Source of the DNA: an uncultured bacterium
GTDB taxonomy: Bacteria > Patescibacteriota > Minisyncoccia > UBA6257 > 2-01-FULL-56-20
Length of the DNA stretch: 64,000 nucleotides
NCBI GenBank assembly: GCA_963844965.1
Contig: CAWJQC010000004.1
Span: 32,001-96,000 of the forward strand
Reading direction: 5' to 3'
Part shown: positions 1 through 42,172 of the stretch, one piece after another
Numbering within the stretch: position 1 is the first letter of the stretch
Layout: every line of letters starts with the position of its first letter
Position numbers and translations under genes: made by a program
Notes under the pieces: generated by a model
The model's input: the letters and a program-made list of their open reading frames with translations, nothing else
Databases searched by the model: none
Told to the model about the DNA's origin: nothing

Positions 1-511
1 GGGCAGCTTCCGCTACTCGTGCCTTGTTACGACTTATCCCATGTCACCGAGCTTAAGCTAAATCGCCTGAGGCGATCTTCACCTACTCCCGGCTCCCTTG
101 GATTGACGGGCAGTGAGTACAGGACTCGAGAACGTATTCACCGCAACATAGCTGATTTGCGATTACTAGCGATTCCAGCTTCATGAGGGCAGGTTGCAGC
201 CCTCAATCCGAACTGAGACCGGGTTTGATGGGATTAGCTCCGCCTTGCGACTTCGCAACCCATTGTCCCGGCCATTGTAGCACGAGTGTAGCCCAGGGCA
301 TCAGAGGGCCATGCTGATTTGACGTCATCCCCTCCTTCCTCCCCGCTCAGAAACCACGAGACATGAGACACACGTCACGACTCACAAATTTATTGTGCAT
401 CGTGCTACGTGTATCGTGCATCATGAACTCTGAGCGGGGCAGTTTCGCGTGACACTTGTAACACACGATAGGGGTTGCGCTCGTTACCCCACTTAAGGGA
501 ACACTTCAAAG

Positions 512-542
<31 letters not shown>

Positions 543-669
543 ACGTGACGTCCTTGAGAGAGGGCCCGCCTTTCGGCAAGCTTTCGTCACGAATTTCAAG
601 CCCTGGTAAGGTTCCTCGCTTACTGTCGAATTAAACCTCATGCTCCACCGCTTGTGCGAGTCCCCGTCT

Positions 670-701
<32 letters not shown>

Positions 702-1161
702 TCCCAGGCGGCCGACTTAACGCGTTAGCTCCGCCACTCCGAGGGTCGATACTCGAAACAGCAAGTCGGCATCGTTTAGGGCGTGGACTACAAGGGTATC
801 TAATCCTTTTTGCTCCCCACGCTTTCGCGTCTCAGAGTCAGGAAGGTCCCAGTGCCATGCCTTCGCCTTTGGTGTTCCGCACGATATCAACGGATTTCAC
901 CCCTACACCGTGCGTTCCAGGCACCTCTAACCTCCTCTAGTTTCGCCGTATCTCCTGCACTTCCACCGTTAGGCGGTGGGATTTAACAGAAGACGCACGA
1001 AACCTCCTACACGCTCTTTACGCCCAATAAATCCGGATAACGCTCGAGGTCTACGTATTACCGCGGGTGCTGGCACGTAGTTACCAACCTCTTTCCGTAT
1101 GGTACGGTCACCCAGCACTTTTGGAACGAACTTTTCTAATTTGCTCAAATTTTTGGAGGTA

Positions 1162-1190
1162 TTGACAACAGCAATCACTTCTGCTATAAT
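1162..1190 (+). promoter_or_regulatory. Perfect consensus sigma70 promoter (TTGACA-17 nt-TATAAT) inside the 16S insertion, antisense to the rRNA.
   Basis: TTGACA at 1162-1167, a 17-nt spacer, TATAAT at 1185-1190. Confidence 0.6.
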
Positions 1191-1269
1191 GCCCATAGCA
1201 CATTGGGAGACCAACGTGCCGCACGTCGGGCCTCAGCCCTTGTGCAATTCCCAAAAGGAGAATTGATTT

Positions 1270-1461
1270 ATGCGTGCCAAATTCCCGTCACAAGTCACGG
1301 ATCGAATACTGGAAGCAGCCAAGAAAGAGTACTCCTTCCAGATCAATCATGCGGAATTAGGGCGGCGGCTGTTTACGCGCAAGCACTGTGGCACGAGAAT
1401 GGTTCAGGTAAAAGTCTTTCTGCAAGGAAGACAACAACCTGCCATACTCGGAAAACAATAA
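1270..1461 (+). CDS. 63-aa basic hypothetical protein encoded antisense inside the 16S rRNA insertion.
   Basis: AAGGAG RBS at 1255-1260, 9 nt upstream of ATG 1270. The ORF is MRAKFPSQVTDRILEAAKKEYSFQINHAELGRRLF.... It is preceded by the consensus promoter and followed by an intrinsic terminator. Confidence 0.45.
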   Translation: MRAKFPSQVTDRILEAAKKEYSFQINHAELGRRLFTRKHCGTRMVQVKVFLQGRQQPAILGKQ

Positions 1462-1542
1462 CCACAGATGCACGGACGCCGCAGTATGCCCCGTTTGTTT
1501 GCTGGCATATGTCATGACTAACGACTAGCTGCCACCTTTCTA

Positions 1543-1577
1543 CTGCCACCAGAAGCTTTCCGGTGGCAGTTTTTTAA
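1543..1577 (+). terminator. Intrinsic terminator after the 63-aa ORF.
   Basis: ctgccacc-agaagctttcc-ggtggcag hairpin followed by TTTTTT. Confidence 0.6.
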
Positions 1578-2337
1578 ATCCAAAAATTTGAGCAAATTAG
1601 TTTTCCCGCCAAAAGTGCTGGGTTCTTCCCATACTACCGCAGTTTACAACCCGAAGGCCTTCTTCCTGCACGCGGCGTCGCTCGATCAGGCTTTCGCCCA
1701 TTGTCGAATATTCTCGGCTACTGCCACCCGTAGGTGTACGAACCGTTTCTCAGTTTCGTCGTTGGGGGTCAGGCTCTCACCTCCCCTACCGGTCATAGCC
1801 TTGGTAGGCCGTTACCCTGCCAACTAGCTGATCGGACCTAGGCCGCTCTTGGAGCGTCTTGCGACTTTGGATGCGAATGGCTTTCGCCCCCGCATCATCA
1901 TCAGGAATTACCCCGCCTTTCGGCGAGCTGTGCCCGTCTCCAAGGTACGTTACCAAGGTGTTACTAACTCGTTCGCCGCTCACTATTTTCCTTGCGGAAA
2001 ATAGTTCGCTCAACTTGCATGCCTTATCCACGCCGCCAGCGTTCATCCTGGACCAGGATCAAATCCTCAGTAAAAATCGCGCATTTATTCAATACGCGAG
2101 ATTGTGCGCCATGCATGACGCCCAAACTCGCGCATCTCACTCGTGCGTGAGTTCATACCGCGATTGATTTATTGATCTCGGTTTATTTCAATTCCAAACC
2201 GAAAAATGAATCTTATTGGGACAACTAAAAAACTCTTTTTTATTTACTTTTCTCATATTAATTTTTCAATCTGCAGTCGGCGCAGTCCTTTACCCCGCAC
2301 ATTACCTTCGGTAATAACGGGGCGAGCAACAAAACAT

Positions 2338-8794: not shown

Positions 8795-10252
8795 CTATGC
8801 CTTTGACTTTTTAATTCCCAATCCTAACTCATTCAATTGTTTTTTGTCCACATCGCTCGGCGAACCCATCATCGGGTCATAGCCCTCGCCAGTTTTCGGG
8901 AATGCAATAACTTCGCGGATGTTCGGCTCGTTTTGCAAAACAGTAACCAGGCGGTCAAGTCCCCAGGCGATGCCGCCATGCGGCGGCGCGCCGAAACTCA
9001 GCGCCTCAAGCATGTGCCCGAACTTCGCCTGTATCTCCGTGTCACTGTAGCCCATAATACTAAACACTGCCTTGAGTGCTTCGGGCCTGTGATTGCGCAT
9101 ACTGCCGCCGCCGATCTCCAGTCCGTTCAAAACAACATCGTATTGGCTTGTCAAAATTCCGGCAATATTTTTCTGCGCCAGCAAATCATCCATAAACTCC
9201 GGCTTCGGCGCGGAAAATGGGTTGTGCGTAAAAGTCCATTTGGTTTTCTCTCCGCCAGAGGCGGATCCCTGCCCGCCGGCAGGCGCGGCGCCTTCGGCGG
9301 AAAAAAACGGAAAATCAATTATCCAGCAAAAAGCCAAAAGGTTCGGGTCGTTCTTATCCTTCCGTAAATCCGGCCGGTCGGTTTTATATTTTTCAGCAAC
9401 ATCTTTATAGCTCAGACGCGGGAAAGGAATTTCCTGAATTTTTTTGTCCGGATAGAGGGTCTCCACTATCTTTATCAGAAGTTCTTCGTTTATCGCCATC
9501 ACATCCTCGCGTTCCACGAAGCTCATCTCCAGATCAAGTTGCGTGAATTCCGGCTGCCTGTCTCCTCTTGTGTCCTCGTCGCGGAAACAACGGGCAATCT
9601 GGAAATATTTTTCCAATCCGCCGACCATCAAAAGCTGTTTATACTGCTGCGGCGACTGCGGCAAAGCGTAAAACTGTCCTTTGAAAATGCGTGACGGCAC
9701 AAGATAATCGCGTGCGCCTTCCGGCGTGGATTTTGACAGCACCGGCGTTTCTATTTCCAAAAATCCTTTCCCATCCAGAAAATCTCGTATTAACTTGATT
9801 ATTCTGTGCCGCGAAATCAAGTTTTTCTGCAAGCGCGCGCGCCGCAAATCCAAATATCTGTATTTCAGGCGGGTTTCCTCGTTGATCTCGTAACCGTCGG
9901 CGTCAACGGAAATCGGCGTGGCTTCCGAGCGATTCAGGATTTCCAGTTCGGTCGCGCTGACTTCATAGTGACCGGTCGGCAACTTGTCGTTCACCATCGC
10001 CGGCGGCCGCTTCTTGACCTCGCCTTTCACTCGCACGACATATTCCAGCCGCAGGTCGCCGGCGCCTGATAATGATGGCCCTCCGCCAGAGGCGGATCCG
10101 CCTTCGGCGGAAAAAACGACCTGCGCTAAACCGCTCCGGTCGCGGAGGTCAATAAAAACCAATTTCCCGTGGTCGCGCCGCGCGTGAACCCAACCGCAAA
10201 GCTCAACTTCTTTGCCTTCGTTTTTTATGATTTCTGATACAGATACCCGCAT
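8795..10252 (-). CDS. aspS: Aspartyl-tRNA synthetase (class II, short type lacking the GAD domain) with two in-frame Gly/Ser/Ala-rich insertions.
   Basis: N-terminal OB fold, motif FRDEDTRGDRQPEFTQLDLEMSF, C-terminal GGIAWGLDRL. Confidence 0.85.
   Translation of the reverse strand: MRVSVSEIIKNEGKEVELCGWVHARRDHGKLVFIDLRDRSGLAQVVFSAEGGSASGGGPSLSGAGDLRLEYVVRVKGEVKKRPPAMVNDKLPTGHYEVSATELEILNRSEATPISVDADGYEINEETRLKYRYLDLRRARLQKNLISRHRIIKLIRDFLDGKGFLEIETPVLSKSTPEGARDYLVPSRIFKGQFYALPQSPQQYKQLLMVGGLEKYFQIARCFRDEDTRGDRQPEFTQLDLEMSFVEREDVMAINEELLIKIVETLYPDKKIQEIPFPRLSYKDVAEKYKTDRPDLRKDKNDPNLLAFCWIIDFPFFSAEGAAPAGGQGSASGGEKTKWTFTHNPFSAPKPEFMDDLLAQKNIAGILTSQYDVVLNGLEIGGGSMRNHRPEALKAVFSIMGYSDTEIQAKFGHMLEALSFGAPPHGGIAWGLDRLVTVLQNEPNIREVIAFPKTGEGYDPMMGSPSDVDKKQLNELGLGIKKSKA
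9248..9307. repeat. GC-rich palindromic mini-element copy 1 (with an extra 22-nt internal insert), located in-frame inside aspS.
   Basis: ctccgccagaggcggatcc[ctgcccgccggcaggcgcggcg]ccttcggcggaaaaaaa. Hairpins ccgcc-agag-gcgg and ccgcc-ttc-ggcgg. Confidence 0.55.
10080..10115. repeat. GC-rich palindromic mini-element copy 2, in-frame inside aspS.
   Basis: ctccgccagaggcggatccgccttcggcggaaaaaa. Encodes FSAEGGSASGGG on the coding strand. Confidence 0.55.
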
Positions 10253-11100: not shown

Positions 11101-11101
11101 G

Positions 11102-11512
11102 TTGCTGGCAATCCGTAAGCCGGATTCTGTCGCGCCTGCCTGTCGGCAGACGATGCGATCATTTATCTGGGCCCTTGATTGCTCGCGGGCTCAAGCGGCA
11201 CTTCCACCTCATCGGCGGACACGGCCTTGCACCCAGTAAGGATTTAGCCGTTTCATCTCCACTTTTTTATCCCTATGGCGGAGCTGGACCGACTAGCTTG
11301 GGATTGGGTCCGTCCGACTTTTTCAAATCGGACCGTTTCTGCTCGCACCTCTATTCTTACGAACGACGGCTGTTAGCCGCTACTATTTTATCCCTCCCCA
11401 GTTTTGCCAGTAATGTCACTGGCAAAACTGGGGAGGGATGGTGTCCGGACTTTCCTCCCTACATTTTCTAGAATTTTAAGAAAATGTAGGGCGATCGCCT
11501 AGATTGCCAGCT
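11102..11512 (-). ncRNA. rnpB: RNase P RNA (bacterial type).
   Basis: rc contains P4 strands GGAGGAAAGTCCGGAC and ACAGAATCCGGCTTA. P1 GCTGGCAATC/GATTGCCAGC. P3 hairpin CCCTACATTTTCT/AGAAAATGTAGGG. A 21-bp P-helix tccctccccagttttgccagt/actggcaaaactggggaggga. Confidence 0.85.
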
Positions 11513-17332: not shown

Positions 17333-17515
17333 TTACTTCCCTCCTATCTTAACCTCCTTGTGTGCCGTATGTTTTCGGCACCACTTGCAGAATTTTTTAT
17401 ATTCCAGTTTCCGCTCAACTTTCTTCTTGTTCTTGGTCGTATAATAATTCCGCCGTTTGCAGACGGAACAACGCAGGGCTATTAAATTCTCGGAATGCTT
17501 GGATTTAGCTGCCAT
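17333..17515 (-). CDS. rpmG: 50S ribosomal protein L33.
   Basis: MAAKSKHSENLIALRCSVCKRRNYYTTKNKKK...KFCKWCRKHTAHKE. Confidence 0.85.
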   Translation of the reverse strand: MAAKSKHSENLIALRCSVCKRRNYYTTKNKKKVERKLEYKKFCKWCRKHTAHKEVKIGGK

Positions 17516-17635
17516 GGAATCAGAAAGTAGAAGGTAGAAAATAGAATTTAGAACATAGAACTGAGGGCGCGGAGAGAACAATCCTCAAAATTCCACACAG
17601 GAAATCTTAGCAGAAAACCGGTTTTCGCGCAAATC

Positions 17636-20919: not shown

Positions 20920-23900
20920 ATGTCCAAGTTCACGCATCTCCATATCCACTCCCACTATTCTCTGCTTGACGGCCTCACAAAAATTGACGACCTTGTCGCG
21001 CGGGTAAAGGAACTCGGAATGGATTCGGTAGCGCTCACCGACCACGGCGTTCTCTACGGCGCCGTTGAATTTTACAAAAAGGCGCGGGCCGCCGGCATAA
21101 AACCGATCCTCGGCCTCGAAACCTACGTCGCGCCGAGGGACAGGTTCAGTAAAGAAACGAGTGAGCGGTATTATCACCTCATACTCCTCGCGGAAAGCAA
21201 CACCGGCTGGAAAAATCTCATAAAACTTTCCACCAAAGCGCACCTGGAAGGGTTTTATTACAAACCCCGCGTTGACAAAGACCTTCTGCGGGAATGCCAC
21301 GAGGGACTCATCGCGCTCTCGGCATGCCTAGGCAGCGAGATCGGCCAGGCGCTCCTTGAAGGCAACACGGAAAAAGCTGAGCGCATCGCTCGGGAGTATG
21401 AAGAAATATTCGGCAAAGGAAATTATTTTCTGGAGATCCAAAAACATCCGCGCATTGCCGATTCAGAAAAGATAGAGACGGGACTCATAGACCTGTCGCG
21501 CGCTACCGGCATCCCTCTCGTCGCCACGCAGGACAGCCACTACCTCCGCTCAGAGGATGCGGAATACCACGACGTGCTTCTCGCTGTGCAGACCGGCAAT
21601 CAACTCGCCGACCAGGACCGCCTGACGATGAAAGACGATGACTTCTCCCTCCTTTCTCCGGAAGCAATGGCGGAAAAATTCGTGCGCGTTCCCGAAGCCA
21701 TCGCCCAGACTTCCGTTATCGCCGAGCGCTGCAATGTTGAACTGCAACTCGGAAAAGTTATCCTGCCGAATTTTCCCAAGCCGGAGGATAAAACCGCGAA
21801 CGAATACCTGAGCGACTTGATAAACGAAAAGATCGGTAATCGCTTCACAAAAGAAAAACAAACTCCTGAACTTTTGAAGCGATTGGAATACGAGCTCACT
21901 ACGATCGAGAAGACCGGATTCGCCGATTACTTTTTGATAGTCGCGGACATGATCAACTGGGCCAAAACCCACGGCATAGCCGTAGGCCCTGGCCGCGGTT
22001 CCGCCGCCGGAAGCCTGGCTTCGTATATCCTCGGCATAACGGACATCAATCCGCTTGAATACAACCTCCTTTTTGAGAGATTCCTGAACCCCGACAGGGT
22101 TCAAATGCCGGACGTTGACATGGATTTCGCCGACACGCGGCGCGATGAGGTCCTGGCATATCTGCGCGAAAAGTACGGCACCGACCATGTGGCGCAGATA
22201 ATAACTTTCGGAACGATGATGGCGAGAGCGGCGTTGCGGGACGCGGGCCGCGCGATGGGATTTAGCTATAATTTCTGCGACCAAATCGCCAAGCTGATCC
22301 CGTTCAATCCGACACAAGGAATGAAAGAAGGATGGCTGGACAGGTGTCTCGCCATGGTGCCGGAACTTAAATCCACCTACGAAGGCAATGTGGACGCCAA
22401 GCGCCTCATTGACACCGCACGGCATCTTGAAGGAGTGGCGCGCCACGCGTCGGTCCACGCCTGCGGTACGGTGATCTCCAAAGAGCCGCTCGTGAATTAC
22501 CTGCCGTTGCAGCTCGCGCCACAGGACAAAAACAATGTCATCACACAATTTGAGATGCACAGCGTGGAAGACCTGGGACTCCTCAAAATGGATCTCTTGG
22601 GACTCAGGAACCTCACCGTAATAGAGGAAACCGTACGCCTCGTGAAAGACACGCGCGGCGAGGAGTTGAAAATTTCCGAACTGCCGCTCAACGACAAAAA
22701 AACATTTGAACTTCTGCGGGCGGCGAACACCACGGGCGTCTTCCAGTTCGAAAGTTCCGGCATGAAACGCTATATGAAGGAAATTGAACCGACAAGCATT
22801 GAAGACCTAATCGCCCTCGTCGCTCTTTTCCGCCCCGGCCCGATGGAACTTATTCCGTCCTTTATCAATCGCAAGCATGGGCGGGAAAAAATCACATATC
22901 TTCATCCCCTGCTTGAACCAATCCTAAAAAACACCTACGGCATCGGCGTTTATCAGGAACAAATGATGCAAATCGCCCGCGACCTCGGCGGCTACACGCT
23001 CGCGGAAGCCGACACCCTGCGGAAAGCGATCGGCAAGAAAATAAAAAAACTTCTGGACGAACAGAAAGAAAAACTCATAAGCGGCATGCGCAAAAAAGGC
23101 ATACCGCAAAAGACGGCGCAAGCTATCTGGGAACTCTTCCCACCTTTTGCGCGCTACGGTTTCAACAAATCGCACGCCGCCTGCTACGCCCTGATCGGCT
23201 ACCGGACTGCATATCTCAAAGCGCACTATCCGGAGGAATTCATGGCGGGACTCCTCAATTCCGAGCTGAGCGATATTGACCGCATCTCGGTTCTCATAGA
23301 AGAAGCGAAGCAGTCCAACATCGGGATACTGCCGCCGGACATTAATAAAAGTTTCGTAAATTTCACACCAGAGGGAGAAAAAATCAGGTTCGGTCTGGTA
23401 GCTGTGAAAAATGTCGGCGAAGAGATAGCGAAGAACATCATAGAAGAACGGATCCGCGGCGGCCCGTTCAAGAATTTTGAGGATTTCCTCTCGCGGGTTC
23501 AGCACAAAGACCTGAACAAAAAATCCCTGGAGTCGCTCATAAAAGGCGGCGCGTTTGACTCGCTTGGCGTGGAGCGCAATCAGGCCCTCCAAGGAATGGA
23601 GGATGTGCTCAGGTTCGCGAACGTTTTCCGCAAAGGCGCAGCATCCATGAATGGCAGAAGTACTTCCCTCTTCGGTGTGAGCACGCCCAAAGCTTCGTTA
23701 AAATTGAAAATTGTTCCGCCGGCGACAAACGAGGAAAAGCTTGCCTGGGAAAAGGAACTCCTCGGATTCTACCTGTCCGAGCATCCTCTGAAGGCCTACG
23801 AGAAAAAAATAAACGGCTACAACGCGAAGCCGATATCCGAAGTGCGGAAGATAACGAACGGCCAGCTTACGGTGCGGACCGCGGGCCTTGTCTCACAAAT

Positions 23901-24119: not shown

Positions 24120-24230
24120 TTAGAAAATAGTAAGTAGAAATTAGAAAATAGAATTTTGTCGGGATTTTCGGCGAAGTTCCGATTTCTATTTTCTATTTAC
24201 TATTTTCTACTTTCTATCTACGATATTGCT
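24120..24230. repeat. Long imperfect AT-rich inverted repeat (TAGAAA-type spacer) between convergent dnaE and the nucleotidyltransferase gene.
   Basis: agaaaatagtaagtagaaattagaaaatagaa ... ttctattttctatttactattttctactttct. Confidence 0.55.
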
Positions 24231-24676: not shown

Positions 24677-26125
24677 TCATTTTTTCGGACGCATCAGCGG
24701 GAAAATCACGGTCTCGCGCACGGGCTTGTCCATCAAAATCGCGAATAGGCGCTCTGACATGCCGAAACCGGCGGCGGGCGGCATACCGTACTCCATAGCT
24801 TCCAAGTAATCCTCGTCCAGCCGCTGGGCTTCATTGTCCCCTTCCGCACGCAACTTCATCTGCTCCTCAAACCGCGCGCGCTGGTCAAGGGGGTCATTCA
24901 GTTCCGAAAAACCATTTCCCACTTCCGTGCCACAGGCCACTACCTGAAACCGTTCCGCGACTTTCGGATTTTTCCGACTGCGTTTGGCCAAGGGTACTAA
25001 TTCAACCGGTGGGTCAACCAAAAAGCACGGCTCAATCAGTTTGGGTCGGATGGCTTTCTTATATATCAGATCAATAAGGCGTCCTCTGCCGAGATTTTCC
25101 TCCGGCTGCAGGCCGAAAGAACGTGCCGTGATAAAAAGCTCTTTGCGCGTGGCAACCGTCGGGTCAAGCCCGGCAGCTTTCTTAAATTCCTCCACGTAAT
25201 TCACTTTCGGCCACCTCTTCCCCCAGTTTATTTTTTTGCCGCCGAAGGTCACGGTAAAACCGCCGCAGGTTTTTTTGACAACGGCTTTGTACATTTTTTC
25301 CACGGACGCCATCATGTCGTTGTAATCGGCGTAAGCCCAGTAGTATTCCATGTGCGTGTAGTCCTGCAGATGTTCCTTGTCTATGCCTTCGTTGCGGAAC
25401 ACGCGGCCAATCTCAAAGACCCTTTCAAAACCGGCGACGAGAAGTTTTTTCAAAGACAGTTCCATGGATATGCGCAGGTAGAAGTCAACATCCAGCGCAT
25501 TGTGATGCGTTTTGAACGGCTCGGCGTCCGCGCCTCCGGGAACGCTCTCCAGAACGGGCGTTTCCACTTCCAAAAATCCTTCGCCCTTAAGATAATTGCG
25601 GATAGTTTCCCAAAAAACGGCTTTCTTCTCAAAAAGCACCTTTGCTTCCGGATTCATAAGCAAATCCAGGTATCGTTTCCGCAGGCGCGTTTCAATGTCT
25701 TCCAGCCCGTACCACTCGCTCGGCAACGGACGCAGGGATTTCGCCAGTATTTTAAGCTCTTTAACTTCCAGACTTTCCTCTCCTTTTTTCGTCTTGAACA
25801 ACGAGCCACCCGCGTAAATAAAATCGCCGATGTCCAAAACGGATTTCCAAAATTCAAAATCCGGCAAATTGTCTTTCTTCAAAACCAGCTGCAGCTTGCC
25901 CGTGGCGTCTGCCAGATCAAGAAACACGATATTCCCCTGGTCGCGCGAGCCCAAAATGCGCCCGACCAAAGAAATCTTCTTCCGGGATTTCGCCAGCGCG
26001 TTGAATCTTTTCCGCGCCTCGGCAATCGCAAGCGTCCGCTTCGCCTCCGGCGGATACGGGTCGAGCTTCACTTTCTTTATTTCTTCCAGCTTCTTCAACC
26101 GCTCTTTGATAAGATCGTCAAGCAT
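24677..26125 (-). CDS. lysS: Lysyl-tRNA synthetase (class II).
   Basis: N-terminal OB anticodon-binding domain plus a class II core. ...FEIGRVFRNEGID.... Confidence 0.85.
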   Translation of the reverse strand: MLDDLIKERLKKLEEIKKVKLDPYPPEAKRTLAIAEARKRFNALAKSRKKISLVGRILGSRDQGNIVFLDLADATGKLQLVLKKDNLPDFEFWKSVLDIGDFIYAGGSLFKTKKGEESLEVKELKILAKSLRPLPSEWYGLEDIETRLRKRYLDLLMNPEAKVLFEKKAVFWETIRNYLKGEGFLEVETPVLESVPGGADAEPFKTHHNALDVDFYLRISMELSLKKLLVAGFERVFEIGRVFRNEGIDKEHLQDYTHMEYYWAYADYNDMMASVEKMYKAVVKKTCGGFTVTFGGKKINWGKRWPKVNYVEEFKKAAGLDPTVATRKELFITARSFGLQPEENLGRGRLIDLIYKKAIRPKLIEPCFLVDPPVELVPLAKRSRKNPKVAERFQVVACGTEVGNGFSELNDPLDQRARFEEQMKLRAEGDNEAQRLDEDYLEAMEYGMPPAAGFGMSERLFAILMDKPVRETVIFPLMRPKK

Positions 26126-27749: not shown

Positions 27750-27884
27750 TGAAATAGAAAATAGAATTTAGAAAGTAGAAAGTAGTAGGTAGTAGGAAGA
27801 AAAAACTGAAAATTTCTAAATTCTAATTTCTGATTTCTAAACAATTAAAATTATAACACAAAAGAAACAGCTGAAATTCCACGC

Positions 27885-31907: not shown

Positions 31908-33172
31908 TGCCCTCGTATTCGCGAACCGTCAGCTGCGAATCCACCTGCCTCATTGTCTCCAAGCGCTACCGCGACAACGATCAGAAGCGCCGTGCCCGAA
32001 ATATTCAGGACCTGGACGCCGGTAAAGCGCTGGATGACGAGCGGCAAAACCGCGATCAAACCCAGAAACGCTGCGCCGAAAAACGTGATGCGGTTAACGA
32101 TACCGGAAAAGAATTGGGTGGTCGCCTCGCCGGGCCGGATACCCGGAACGAATCCGCCACCCTTCTGGAGATTTTTGGCGACCTCTTCCGGATTGAACGT
32201 AATGGCGGTGTAGAAATATGTGAAAATGAAAACCAGGGCGAAGTAGAAAATTCCGTAAAAAATCTGATTGTTCAAAAACGCCGTCACGAAGCCGTTTATT
32301 TTAAGCGCGAGACTCGGAGAAAAAATGGTCGCGGCCTGAGCGATGAACTGCGGGAACAGAAGGACCGAGATCGCGAATATCAAGGGAATCATTCCGGCCT
32401 GGTTCACCTTGAGCGGTAGATAGCTTTGCGCGCCGCCATACATTTTCATGCCGCGAACCCGCCGCGCGTAGGCGACGGGAATTTTCCGTTCTCCCTCGTT
32501 CAGATAAACCACGCCGGCGATAAGCAAGACGGCCACTACAACGAAACCGATATACGTCGGCAAAAGCGCCGGCTGATACGAAAGAAGCGCGAGTCCGAAA
32601 GACGAAGGCAGACGGCTCACGATACCCGCTAAAATTATGAGCGATATGCCGTTCCCCACCTTCTCTTCGCTTATAAGTTCTCCGAGCCACAAGGCGAGCA
32701 TGGAACCCGTAACGATTACCACGACGTTCCTTATCATACTGAAAGGATCCGGCCTGTCTATGACGTTCTGGGATATGAGGAGCGTCAAAAATCCGTAAGC
32801 CGAAACGACGGCCAGCGGCACGGTTATGAAACGCGAGTAGCGGTTGAACTTCGCCTGGCCGCGGGCTCCTTCCTCGTAATACATCTGCTTAAACTTCGGG
32901 AAAATAATCGTGAGAAGCTGCATGATGATCGTAGCCGTGATATATGGTCCAACGCCAAGCATGACAACGGACATGTTCACAAGTCCGCCGCCCGAGAAGA
33001 AATTCAAAAATCCTAAGAGCTGATTGGAGTTGAAATAATTCTGAAGTCTAAGCGCGTCCACCCCCGGAATAGGTATCGCGGCCAGGAGCCGGTAAGCGAT
33101 CAAAAACAGTGCGACCTTCAAAATTTTGTTGCGAAGGTCCTTGATTTTAAAAATTTGGAGGAATCTGTTCAT
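31908..33172 (-). CDS. secY: Preprotein translocase SecY. A 1-nt frameshift near 31955 creates an artificial C-terminal extension in the ORF track.
   Basis: 10-TM SecY. The true C-terminus ...ALLIVVAVAL.ETMRQVDSQLTVREYEGIE* is in the alternative frame. Confidence 0.8.
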
Positions 33173-34170: not shown

Positions 34171-34315
34171 GTTGGCGTTAAATTTCTAATATCTAATTTC
34201 TAATTTCTAAACAATATTTGAAATTCCAATGACAAAAACTTAAAATGGTCTGTTTTCAATTTGGGACTTAGAAATTGGGGTTTGTTTAGGATTTAGAAAT
34301 TAGGAATTAGGGCTT

Positions 34316-40978: not shown

Positions 40979-41619
40979 GATTTGTAACGTTTACCCATAA
41001 TTTCAACGGCTTTTCTGTCCATGAAAATATTCTTATAGTTCAAAATGTCGTAGAGATTCAGCGACTCCGGAGGAACAGTTTTTGTCTTGACCAAATTCCG
41101 CGAGGCGCGCGCCAAATTTTTGTTTTCTTTGTTCGCGACAAGAAGTAGATCAAATTTTTTATCCTTCTTTTTCAAGTTCAAAACCGGCGCGAGCGCCGCG
41201 GCAAGAACCTTGGTTTTCGGCCGCTCCACGTTCAAATCTTCAAAAATCCTCACGTCATTGTCTTTGAGTTTGCGCGAGAGCGCGCTCACGAGAGCCAGAC
41301 GCTTCATTTTCTTGTTTATCTTCTGCGAATAATCGCGCAACTTGGAAGGTCCGTGCGCCTTGCCGCCGCCAACCCACAACGGCGAGCGGATAGAGCCATG
41401 CCTCGCGCGCCCCGTTCCCTTCTGCCGCCACGGCTTTCTGCCGCCGCCTCGGACTTCGGCGCGGGTCTTTGCGTGCGCCCACGGGCGTCTGGCGTTCGCA
41501 AGCTGGGCAACCAAAACCTGTTGCACAAGCTCCGGATTCCACTTCACGCCAAAAATCTTGTCGGGTAGTTCAATCTCGCCGACCACCTCGTTTTTTAAAT
41601 TATAAACCGCGGCTTTCAT
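40975..41619 (-). CDS. rplD: 50S ribosomal protein L4.
   Basis: 214 aa, with an RGGGRKPWRQKGTGRAR loop. Confidence 0.85.
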   Translation of the reverse strand: MKAAVYNLKNEVVGEIELPDKIFGVKWNPELVQQVLVAQLANARRPWAHAKTRAEVRGGGRKPWRQKGTGRARHGSIRSPLWVGGGKAHGPSKLRDYSQKINKKMKRLALVSALSRKLKDNDVRIFEDLNVERPKTKVLAAALAPVLNLKKKDKKFDLLLVANKENKNLARASRNLVKTKTVPPESLNLYDILNYKNIFMDRKAVEIMGKRYKS

Positions 41620-41620
41620 T

Positions 41621-42172
41621 CTATTTTCTATTTTCTATTTTCTGTACTTCCAAAATCCCTCCCCTCGCTCCGGGAACCGCTCCCTTTATAAAAAGCAATC
41701 CGTTCTCTTTATCAACGCCGGCGACCTTCAAATTTTTTACCGTCACGCGCTCGTCGCCCATGTGGCCGGCCATGCGGTGGCCCGGCGTAACCCGCTGGGG
41801 CGCGGTGCTGCCGATGGAACCGCCGGCGCGGAAACGGTTTTTCTGTCCGTGTGTTTTCGGTCCGCCGGCGAAACCATGGCGCTTGACGACACCAGCAAAG
41901 CCACGTCCCTTCATCGTGCCCGACACGCGCACCACATCACCTTCCTTGAAAGCATCAACCTCTATTGCGTCACCAACTTTAAATTTCTCGCTTTCGGTTC
42001 TGAATTCCCGCTTTTGCTTTCCGAGAGCGAGCTGAACGGCTTCATATCCGTCCCGTTCGTTAGTGCGAACAAAAGTTACCTTATTCGGCTGCGCGCGAAG
42101 CACCGTCACGGGCACGACGGTTTTGTCCTTCCAAATCTGGGTCATCTTCAATTTTTTCGCCAGGATAAACAT
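41621..42172 (-). CDS. rplC: 50S ribosomal protein L3.
   Basis: KKLKMTQIW...FKEGDVVRVSGTMKGRGFAG. Confidence 0.85.
   Translation of the reverse strand: MFILAKKLKMTQIWKDKTVVPVTVLRAQPNKVTFVRTNERDGYEAVQLALGKQKREFRTESEKFKVGDAIEVDAFKEGDVVRVSGTMKGRGFAGVVKRHGFAGGPKTHGQKNRFRAGGSIGSTAPQRVTPGHRMAGHMGDERVTVKNLKVAGVDKENGLLFIKGAVPGARGGILEVQKIENRK

Follow-up and report, generated by a model that had tools for sequence, protein, structure and literature searches.

In-frame selfish palindromes have so far been regarded as a curiosity of Rickettsia and of a few genomes rich in repetitive extragenic palindromic (REP) sequences. Paired REP sequences are treated under the concept of the REP doublet forming a hairpin (REPIN), which is said to go back to Bertels and Rainey in 2011. 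Palindrome-associated elements derived from IS200/IS605 have hairpin ends, move by a single-stranded mechanism without duplication and insert by a short T-rich sequence; they need a fixed tetra- or pentanucleotide target and have asymmetric left and right ends. The Rickettsia palindromic elements (RPEs; Ogata et al. 2000) are presented in PMC10969869 as palindromic repeats of about 100-150 bp, confined to Rickettsia with several families per genome, which lie in frame in unrelated housekeeping genes and are translated as tolerated extra surface segments of ~30-50 amino acids (aa). A CGTC tag has been reported for RPE-4 and RPE-6 (Di Nocera et al. 2013, PMC3733652). REP sequences and REPINs are imperfect GC-rich palindromes of 20-40 bp, often arranged as inverted dimers and lacking target duplication; pairing the mismatched loop-edge residues of a REP hairpin abolishes cleavage by the REP-associated tyrosine transposase (RAYT), and REP dimers located inside genes are on record for Opitutus terrae, R. 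conorii, Thioalkalivibrio, and Xanthomonas (PMC3733652). Miniature inverted-repeat transposable elements, or MITEs, are likewise short and non-autonomous, with inverted repeats and occasional in-frame fusions (PMC10969869). Here we describe a much smaller palindromic element that occurs twice within aspS, the aspartyl-tRNA synthetase gene, in a 64,000-nt stretch (hereafter the window; positions 32,001 to 96,000 of contig CAWJQC010000004.1, assembly GCA_963844965.1) from an uncultured bacterium of the Patescibacteriota.

A GC hairpin of 15 nt, doubled in inverted orientation, makes up the 30-bp element, TCCGCC-NNA-GGCGGA-TCCGCC-TNN-GGCGGA. Our preferred reading, to which we assign a probability of roughly 0.7, is that it represents a dispersed, non-autonomous palindrome of the REPIN or RPE kind, whose translation yields a flexible loop and which homologous recombination carries from one aspS allele to another.

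Two copies in aspS and the state of the orthologous sites

The host gene aspS (8795..10252, minus strand) is a 485-aa open reading frame (ORF) for a bacterial-type aspartyl-tRNA synthetase (AspRS) and holds both copies of the element. A first-pass annotation of the window had proposed that a palindromic element lies twice, in frame, inside this gene, and our analysis agrees: exactly two occurrences of CCGCCAGAGGCGG exist in the window (9252 and 10083), against 0.08 expected by chance, and 0 of 100 shuffles gave two or more. Each copy is adjoined by CCGCCTTCGGCGG or a one-mismatch version of it. No third copy of the element was found within the 64-kb window, even with up to 6 substitutions allowed. 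The copy at the first site, termed site N, is an intact 30-nt doublet (10082..10111, minus strand) that reads TCCGCC GAA GGCGGA TCCGCC TCT GGCGGA on the coding strand and supplies residues 48-57 in the context VVF/SAEGGSASGG/GP (slashes mark insertion points here and below). One arm of this doublet is a 15-nt hairpin unit at 10082..10096 with a 6-bp stem, TCCGCC/GGCGGA, and a 3-nt loop; the other arm, likewise a 15-nt hairpin unit in the DNA fold, occupies 10097..10111. A T-run, GTT TTT, encoding V46 and F47 (10112..10117, minus strand), lies directly 5' of the element.

At the second site, site C, a 51-nt composite (9251..9301, minus strand) supplies residues 318-334, SAEGAAPAGGQGSASGG, in frame between FF and EKTKW. 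Both copies therefore read as Gly/Ser/Ala loops, SAEGGSASGG at site N and this longer peptide at site C, as had been claimed. The composite is a 30-nt doublet split by a nested palindrome. One hairpin unit is intact (9251..9265, coding strand TCCGCC TCT GGCGGA), while the other is divided into 12 nt at 9290..9301 (plus strand GCCTTCGGCGGA) and 3 nt at 9266-9268. Between the two parts lies a GC palindrome (9269..9289) of seven codons, GCC GCG CCT GCC GGC GGG CAG on the coding strand (AAPAGGQ), with the stem CCTGCC..GGCAGG; within the first unit it separates GGC from GGA, at a distance of 3 nt from the GGATCC centre. The first-pass annotation was thus right that one copy carries an extra palindrome, but this is 21 rather than 22 nt long and is nested inside one unit instead of standing between two halves. 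The copy at 9251-9301 would have gained this second small palindrome near its centre at a later stage. The same nested architecture is seen in the orthologue P0102 (locus L009) and, beside GGATCC, in an intergenic copy of locus L034. The site C element is preceded on its 5' side by a T-run, TTT TTT, encoding F316 and F317 (9302..9307, minus strand), and followed by an A-rich 3' flank, GAG AAA ACC AAA (EKTK; 9239..9250, minus strand), which goes along with the insert.

At each site the second hairpin is approximately the reverse complement of the first, making the 30-mer an imperfect palindrome centred on GGATCC. As RNA, each site is predicted to fold into a single long hairpin, at -26.3 kcal/mol (z = -3.5) for site N and -40.7 kcal/mol (z = -4.0) for site C, where the nested hairpin forms the tip; the DNA fold of site N consists of two adjacent hairpins. 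A search of Rfam gave no match of the element to a known RNA family.

The AspRS product matches PF01336 (tRNA_anti-codon, the OB-fold anticodon-binding domain) and PF00152 (tRNA-synt_2, the class II core) in Pfam. Its top PDB matches are the T. thermophilus and Mycobacterium enzymes, and its top-scoring relatives come from metagenome-assembled genomes (MAGs) of Paceibacteria/Liptonbacteria, which, along with the insertions in the 16S gene noted below, identifies the host as a member of the Patescibacteria. The GAD insertion domain (~140 residues) is absent from the window AspRS, whose residues 297-335 align across residues 294-434 of the T. thermophilus chain, and from its ~460-aa orthologues. 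An AlphaFold2 model built with 64 orthologues has a mean predicted local distance difference test (pLDDT) score of 79.8, with values below 50 at residues 51-59 (site N insert) and 322-334 (site C insert). Mapped onto this model, as had been proposed, both inserts are predicted to be disordered loops between beta strands, 41-48 and 72-81 at site N and 317-319 and 339-341 at site C. The site N insert takes the place of the short connection between OB-fold strands 3 and 4, and site C is a hairpin loop just past the point where other bacteria have the GAD domain. Two other segments modelled with low confidence, 172-183 and 225-232, lie in the class II catalytic core. Separately, a 54-nt stretch of aspS (9737-9790) shares 76% identity with 25550-25603 in a second gene, presumably another class IIb aminoacyl-tRNA synthetase with a common conserved core motif.

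Alignment with 120 close AspRS orthologues (67-78% identity, mostly 460-463 aa) supports the proposal that the two loops are lineage-specific insertions. The site N insert is missing from 117 of the 120, with the remaining three having a 10-aa insert, and an SAEGG-type insert at site C is missing from 111 and present in nine. The SAEGG carriers at site C have one unit (P0118), two units (P0024, P0011, P0049, P0054, and P0100), or a nested piece as well (the window gene, P0102, and P0071). Since the baseline in uninserted orthologues is VVF/GP at site N and FF/EKTDEGG/W at site C, both loops are derived insertions. The uninserted DNA reads GTT TTT/GGA CCG or GTT TTC/ACG CCT at site N and TTT TTT/GAA AAG at site C; the T-runs are already there, and therefore pre-exist insertion at both sites. 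Carriers are scattered over a neighbour-joining tree of the aspS orthologues. Among relatives, compensated stem variants of the form TCCTCC..GGAGGA are found in L007, L001, and L005, and hairpin units are visibly decayed in L009 and L010.

Site C also holds small in-frame inserts of unrelated sequence in other lineages, such as AHSEASAKE, PSTGSGQAG, and HPELVEGR...GSTGSPQTS. They are borne by L005 (2169-2260), L001 (1312-1440), P0002, P0007, P0008, P0026, P0042, P0070, P0080, and P0092. The AHSEASAKE insert is encoded by the palindrome CACTCCGAAGCTTCAGCGAAGGAGTG, and the other two peptides resemble GC-rich modules in intergenic repeats of other phyla. Because such unrelated small palindromic inserts occur there in other lineages, the site C loop is an insertion hotspot.

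Residues beside the inserts are linked to them. P-S-L follows the site N insert in all three carriers and in none of 114 non-carriers, and the site C loop ends in E(x)xK in 9/9 SAEGG carriers against 1/111 non-carriers. The 90% identity cluster of P0019, a species-level sister population, contains 99%-identical proteins with the site N insert (P0019 and P0122) and without it (P0123 and P0124; P0121 at 96%), and the residues next to the site read TPSLDE in filled alleles and TPSIPE in empty ones. When filled L005 is compared with empty L136, most of a 3.8-kb span shows 0-3 mismatches in every 100 nt, and 35 mismatches fall within a tract of ~340 nt that starts ~13 nt upstream of the site N insert. 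Because this tract of divergence abuts the insert, we conclude that the insert was exchanged by homologous recombination with a diverged allele. Between lineages, aspS inserts appear to travel in this way rather than by fresh insertion. A second tract separates the same two contigs, which are otherwise near-identical, downstream of ndk (L005 3101-3400, 14 mismatches in 300 nt), and suggests frequent short-patch recombination in the P0019 population. A search of metagenome contigs with a gapped exact pattern gave no match for an empty or filled allele of the window genome's own site N, and the contig index has no entry for the exact protein.

A dispersed family and its insertion footprint

To place the aspS copies in a wider context, two scans are available. 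A pattern scan with TCCKCCNNNGGMGGATCCKCCNNNGGMGGA over one genome per species, covering 185,579 species, gave at least 120 matches, as did a scan of metagenome contigs with CCGCCNNAGGCGGATCCGCCTNNGGCGG, in which the end positions were free; the matches are counted across genomes or contigs and not as copies per genome. Among the matches listed in both scans, the element is found at more than 240 further sites (~250) in other genes and phyla. The further copies anticipated by the first-pass annotation therefore exist across many genes and phyla, but the window holds none outside aspS. By record title, the listed genome-scan matches include 62 from the candidate phyla radiation (CPR), among them Saccharibacteria, Kaiserbacteria, and Doudnabacteria, 11 from Omnitrophota, 12 from the Planctomycetes-Verrucomicrobia-Chlamydiae (PVC) group (Kiritimatiellae, Lentisphaerae, Planctomycetes, and Verrucomicrobiota), and 4 from Ignavibacteria/Bacteroidota. 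Elusimicrobia, Firestonebacteria, Margulisbacteria, Chloroflexota, Firmicutes, and Deltaproteobacteria are each represented by one or a few matches, and the rest are unclassified or doubtfully labelled. All of these are MAGs, and the carriers include a few contigs of 0.87-1.65 Mb that, judged from record names and sizes, are long-read-like. In the metagenome matches listed, T1/A30 is present in 114 of 122 copies though the pattern left the ends free. A9 and T22 are 95% conserved though the pattern did not constrain them. The consensus with its flanks is ttt TCCGCC NNA GGCGGA TCCGCC TNN GGCGGA aaa, written ttt-TCCGCCNNAGGCGGATCCGCCTNNGGCGGA-aaa, with four variable positions.

The element is found at unrelated positions in unrelated genes and in intergenic DNA. 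Hosts confirmed by Pfam are DnaG, a class I aminoacyl-tRNA synthetase, ATP synthase beta, TsaD, DNA polymerase I, CysRS, DnaJ, DnaE, PheRS beta (two copies in one gene), and an amylase with a sorting domain. Two copies per ORF recur in other genomes (L031 at 5845/6865, L019 at 1400/1808, and L078 at 2125/2920; for example, pheT of a Campbellbacteria MAG), and the paired copies in one aspS are therefore not unique. In a Kiritimatiellae MAG (L018, 4569-4752 and 6390-6572), and also in L072, the element is one module of a ~185-nt intergenic composite repeat present in several copies, which holds further hairpin modules such as GTCATTCCGAGCGTAG... and CCCTTCGACTTCGCTCAGGGCAGGC. Phages and plasmids were considered as vectors and rejected, as there were 2 matches in 2.9 million viral contigs and the plasmid and phage collections gave chance-level counts. 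No published description of the element was found in the literature searched by sequence, peptide, and keywords.

Comparison of filled with empty orthologous sites shows a difference of exactly 30 nt, placed between codons and without duplicated target bases. Beyond aspS, this comparison covers six cases: two separate sites in dnaG, plus dnaE, cysS, tsaD, and an unidentified ORF. The window itself contributes an empty site, as its dnaE (~23626-23811, plus strand) reads ctcttc/ggtgtg where dnaE of L074 is filled at the same codon junction. The usual insertion context is a T-rich/A-rich junction, with T at -1 in 80-84% of copies. Coding and non-coding copies have these T-rich 5' and A-rich 3' flanks in equal strength (T at -1 in 80% of non-coding copies), which shows the flank signal to be a property of the DNA and not an effect of codons. 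The flanks conform to a loose TTY/RAA consensus with both sides equally enriched and no fixed tetranucleotide. In 0.84 Mb, half-elements set apart on either side of a gene were not observed.

Reading phase depends on the ORF in which a copy lies. In ORFs of at least 900 nt, phase 0, which reads SAxGGSAxGG, accounts for 56 of 61 copies in the genome set and 44 of 53 in the metagenome set (83-92%), while ORFs shorter than 450 nt show no preference among the three phases (15/14/13 and 10/8/9, respectively). About two thirds of the sampled copies lie in ORFs of at least 450 nt in phase 0, and about one third in short or absent ORFs in random phase. The phase bias, together with the avoidance of stop codons, suggests that the coding copies are translated.

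The element is well conserved at the nucleotide level. At orthologous sites of very divergent lineages, 27-30 of its 30 positions are identical where flanking third codon positions are only 25-45% identical; aspS of Paceibacteria and of Saccharibacteria is one such pair. What differs is limited to NN positions and to stem pairs that are compensated. Seven cases of stem compensation fit the unit hairpins only and none fits the long hairpin only. This covariation favours two unit hairpins, and a model with only the long hairpin was rejected. The conservation of A9/T22 and the association between positions 8 and 23 indicate that the pair of units is also read as a whole. The 8/23 association is anti-complementary, A8 occurring with C23 (equivalent to G8 with T23 on the other strand), which amounts to a recurrent A.C or G.T mismatch. 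In 232 distinct copies, 143 are heterogeneous, 28 G/C, and 19 A/T, where arithmetic from these counts gives ~95 heterogeneous copies under independence, bearing in mind that copies may share descent. The excess holds in non-coding copies (35/8/8). In 46 of 57 genic copies the coding strand is the one with A8/C23, giving the hydrophilic SA[K/E/Q]GGSASGG. The 8/23 pair has z = 27.7, and position 8 reaches z ~5-6 against a few flanking positions (data doubled, both orientations pooled). The loops are mostly RRA/TYY, which we infer to be the expected product of C-to-T transitions in the exposed loops of a perfect GGA/TCC palindrome. Two further accounts, one of the doublet and one of its loops, were rejected. 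For an origin of each doublet by snap-back (inverted duplication), perfectly complementary loop dinucleotides number 24 of 127 against 17.8 +/- 3.8 expected, which is not significant; for copying of the loop dinucleotides from the target, there was at most weak, scattered mutual information with the flanks and no interpretable pattern.

Proposed mode of spread and alternative explanations

If the element is a dispersed, non-autonomous palindrome as we propose, it would reach new sites in the form of a single strand that folds into hairpins, by means of an HUH/RAYT-like enzyme acting in trans or of copy-choice at microhomologies in T/A runs. Every insertion other than a short Gly/Ser/Ala loop on a tolerant protein surface would then be removed by selection. 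After settling in a conserved gene (aspS, for example), the insert would move between lineages via homologous recombination of short patches, which would explain the linked flanking substitutions, PSL at site N and EKTK at site C. Most probably, the element itself is selfish or has a neutral effect on AspRS function.

Several observations weigh against this reading. A mobilising enzyme was not found by tblastn with approximate IS200 TnpA and E. coli RAYT queries in 8-kb windows, a search that distant RAYTs could escape: 1.04 Mb of element-bearing loci contained one IS200-like gene (L089). This sole match is unrelated to the element and lends no support to a cis-associated transposase in these loci; a trans-acting enzyme remains compatible with the result. 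All the matches listed are MAGs or metagenome contigs, with none from a cultured isolate, plasmid, or phage, and the window has no copies beyond aspS and so no sign of activity in its genome. With the element excluded, the flanks in the window aspS are no closer to carriers than to non-carriers and are closest to those of phylogenetic neighbours. A carrier-like tract at site C in the sliding-window identity, which would have supported import by recombination into this gene, vanished on the same exclusion and was discarded, leaving the linked PSL and EKTK residues as the one sign of import here. Lastly, near-perfect stems at orthologous sites of very divergent lineages could instead reflect selection for function.

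A bolder possibility, which we put forward tentatively and consider rather doubtful, is that this is an undescribed cross-phylum self-propagating element, possibly the smallest known to colonise coding sequence, with dedicated machinery common to CPR, Omnitrophota, PVC, and the Fibrobacteres-Chlorobi-Bacteroidetes (FCB) group. The persistence of the stems and of the 8/23 mismatch through saturating divergence would point to sequence-specific machinery, either a new HUH-like enzyme or recombination-based copying. Were this the case, the element would serve streamlined genomes generally as a source of new surface loops.

It is unlikely that the double hairpin is a selected nucleic-acid motif, such as a protein binding site or an mRNA structure tuning translation or decay, with the peptide as a by-product. 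Such a motif would account for stems and A9/T22 that stay invariant while flanking synonymous sites are saturated, for the compensatory stem changes, for an 8/23 mismatch kept even in non-coding copies, and for the strong predicted folds (-26 and -41 kcal/mol, z = -3.5 and -4.0). It fits poorly with an insert that is present or absent between 99%-identical alleles, with the patchy distribution among orthologues, with copies at unrelated positions in unrelated genes and in intergenic DNA, with the decayed units in L009 and L010, and with the lack of an Rfam match. In addition, hairpins can be maintained without selection by templated quasi-palindrome correction.

Selection on the peptide, with (SAxGG)2 serving as a flexible linker or a modification or recognition motif and the DNA palindrome being incidental, seems very improbable. 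The dominance of phase 0 in long ORFs, the hydrophilic orientation coding in 46/57 copies, and the position of the inserts in loops are what it would predict. It leaves unexplained the third of copies in short or absent ORFs in random phase, codons that are fixed at four-fold degenerate positions (TCC, GCC, GGC, and GGA), stem changes that are paired at the DNA level and give S-S..G-G variants, and a T/A flank signal unchanged in non-coding copies.

The two remaining explanations have next to no probability. A local origin within aspS, by slippage, intragenic duplication of a low-complexity Gly/Ser stretch, or chance similarity, could draw on both copies lying in one gene with the same loop triplets, GAA and TCT, and on the absence of others in the window, but it is refuted by the scans, which place the identical 30-mer in other genes and phyla at over 240 further sites. 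The shuffles, none of which reproduced the repeat, and site N inserts in lineages whose site C has unrelated inserts also speak against it. An artefact of metagenome assembly or sequencing would suit carriers that are all MAGs or metagenome contigs, with none in isolate, plasmid, or phage collections, but not contig names that point to different assemblers, the long-read-like contigs mentioned above, a phase bias seen only inside long ORFs, precise insertions at conserved loops, allele polymorphism tied to a recombination tract, or loops that vary while stems do not.

Taken together, our analysis describes a far smaller element, with one conserved sequence, located in essential genes (tRNA synthetases, primase, DNA polymerases, and ATP synthase), carried by at least ten phylum-level groups of uncultivated bacteria and having one reading phase in most long ORFs. 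If our preferred reading is true, it would account for part of the unexplained Gly/Ser-rich insertions in CPR proteins, and the insert, moving with short conversion tracts, would be a sequence marker for recombination between deeply diverged lineages. It would also pose the question of what enzyme or process inserts a stretch of exactly 30 bp at T/A junctions across such different bacteria and leaves no duplication. On a practical level, these inserts can mislead marker-gene alignments, phylogenies, and structure predictions.

Other features of the window were recorded alongside the element. The 16S rRNA gene (1-2074, minus strand) is 2074 nt long against a 1533-nt model, with ~540 nt of insertions, and contains a 47-nt inverted repeat (341-387/393-439). 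Beside it, a 36-nt inverted repeat (2341-2376/2774-2809, CCCTACACATT...AATGTGTAGGG) brackets ~400 nt. A class A RNase P RNA (11101-11510, minus strand) scores 100.2 against a gathering threshold of 100, which suggests that it is divergent. AT-rich repeats at 17514-17572, 24121-24227, 27752-27845, 34178-34310, and 41607-41644 consist of TAGAAA/TTTCTA-like heptamers, often as inverted pairs, and might be terminators or regulatory sites.

Comparison with known palindromic elements

A comparison with the described systems shows both likenesses and differences. Like RPEs, the element lies in frame in ORFs (among them dnaG, polA, dnaE, and atpD), and its aspS copies lie in loops of low pLDDT. Unlike RPEs, it is 30 bp long, adds 10 aa in the form of a Gly/Ser/Ala linker peptide, lacks the CGTC tag, and has one and the same stem sequence in Patescibacteria, Omnitrophota, PVC, and others. 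The resemblance to Rickettsia-type palindromic elements noted in the first-pass annotation therefore holds as an analogy and does not extend to homology, the element being set apart by its size (30 bp against about 100-150 bp) and by the missing tag.

The element resembles REP sequences and REPINs in being a short GC-rich inverted dimer with a recurrent mismatch, at positions 8/23, and no target duplication. Together with the hairpin ends, the mismatch and the missing duplication recall HUH/RAYT systems (PMC3733652). It differs in having neither a GTAG nor a CGTC tetranucleotide tag and in the zero spacer between its units. It is mainly intragenic in CPR genomes, whereas REPs are predominantly extragenic, and its sequence is common to many phyla, unlike the species-specific REPs. 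Near it, the approximate tblastn queries described above detected no RAYT gene in the 8-kb windows of the sampled loci. MITEs, in contrast, measure 70-300 bp, have terminal inverted repeats around an internal region, and generate a target-site duplication, while the element has two arms only and no duplication. Its insertion without duplication beside a T-rich flank recalls the IS200/IS605-derived elements, and a single-stranded mechanism would by analogy suit a 30-nt double hairpin. Unlike those elements, it has only the loose TTY/RAA consensus on both sides and is symmetric apart from one mismatch. In conclusion, the kind of element is already known from intragenic REP dimers and RPEs, and what sets this family apart is the size of 30 bp and 10 aa, the absence of known tags, the uniform reading phase, and the occurrence of one sequence across phyla.

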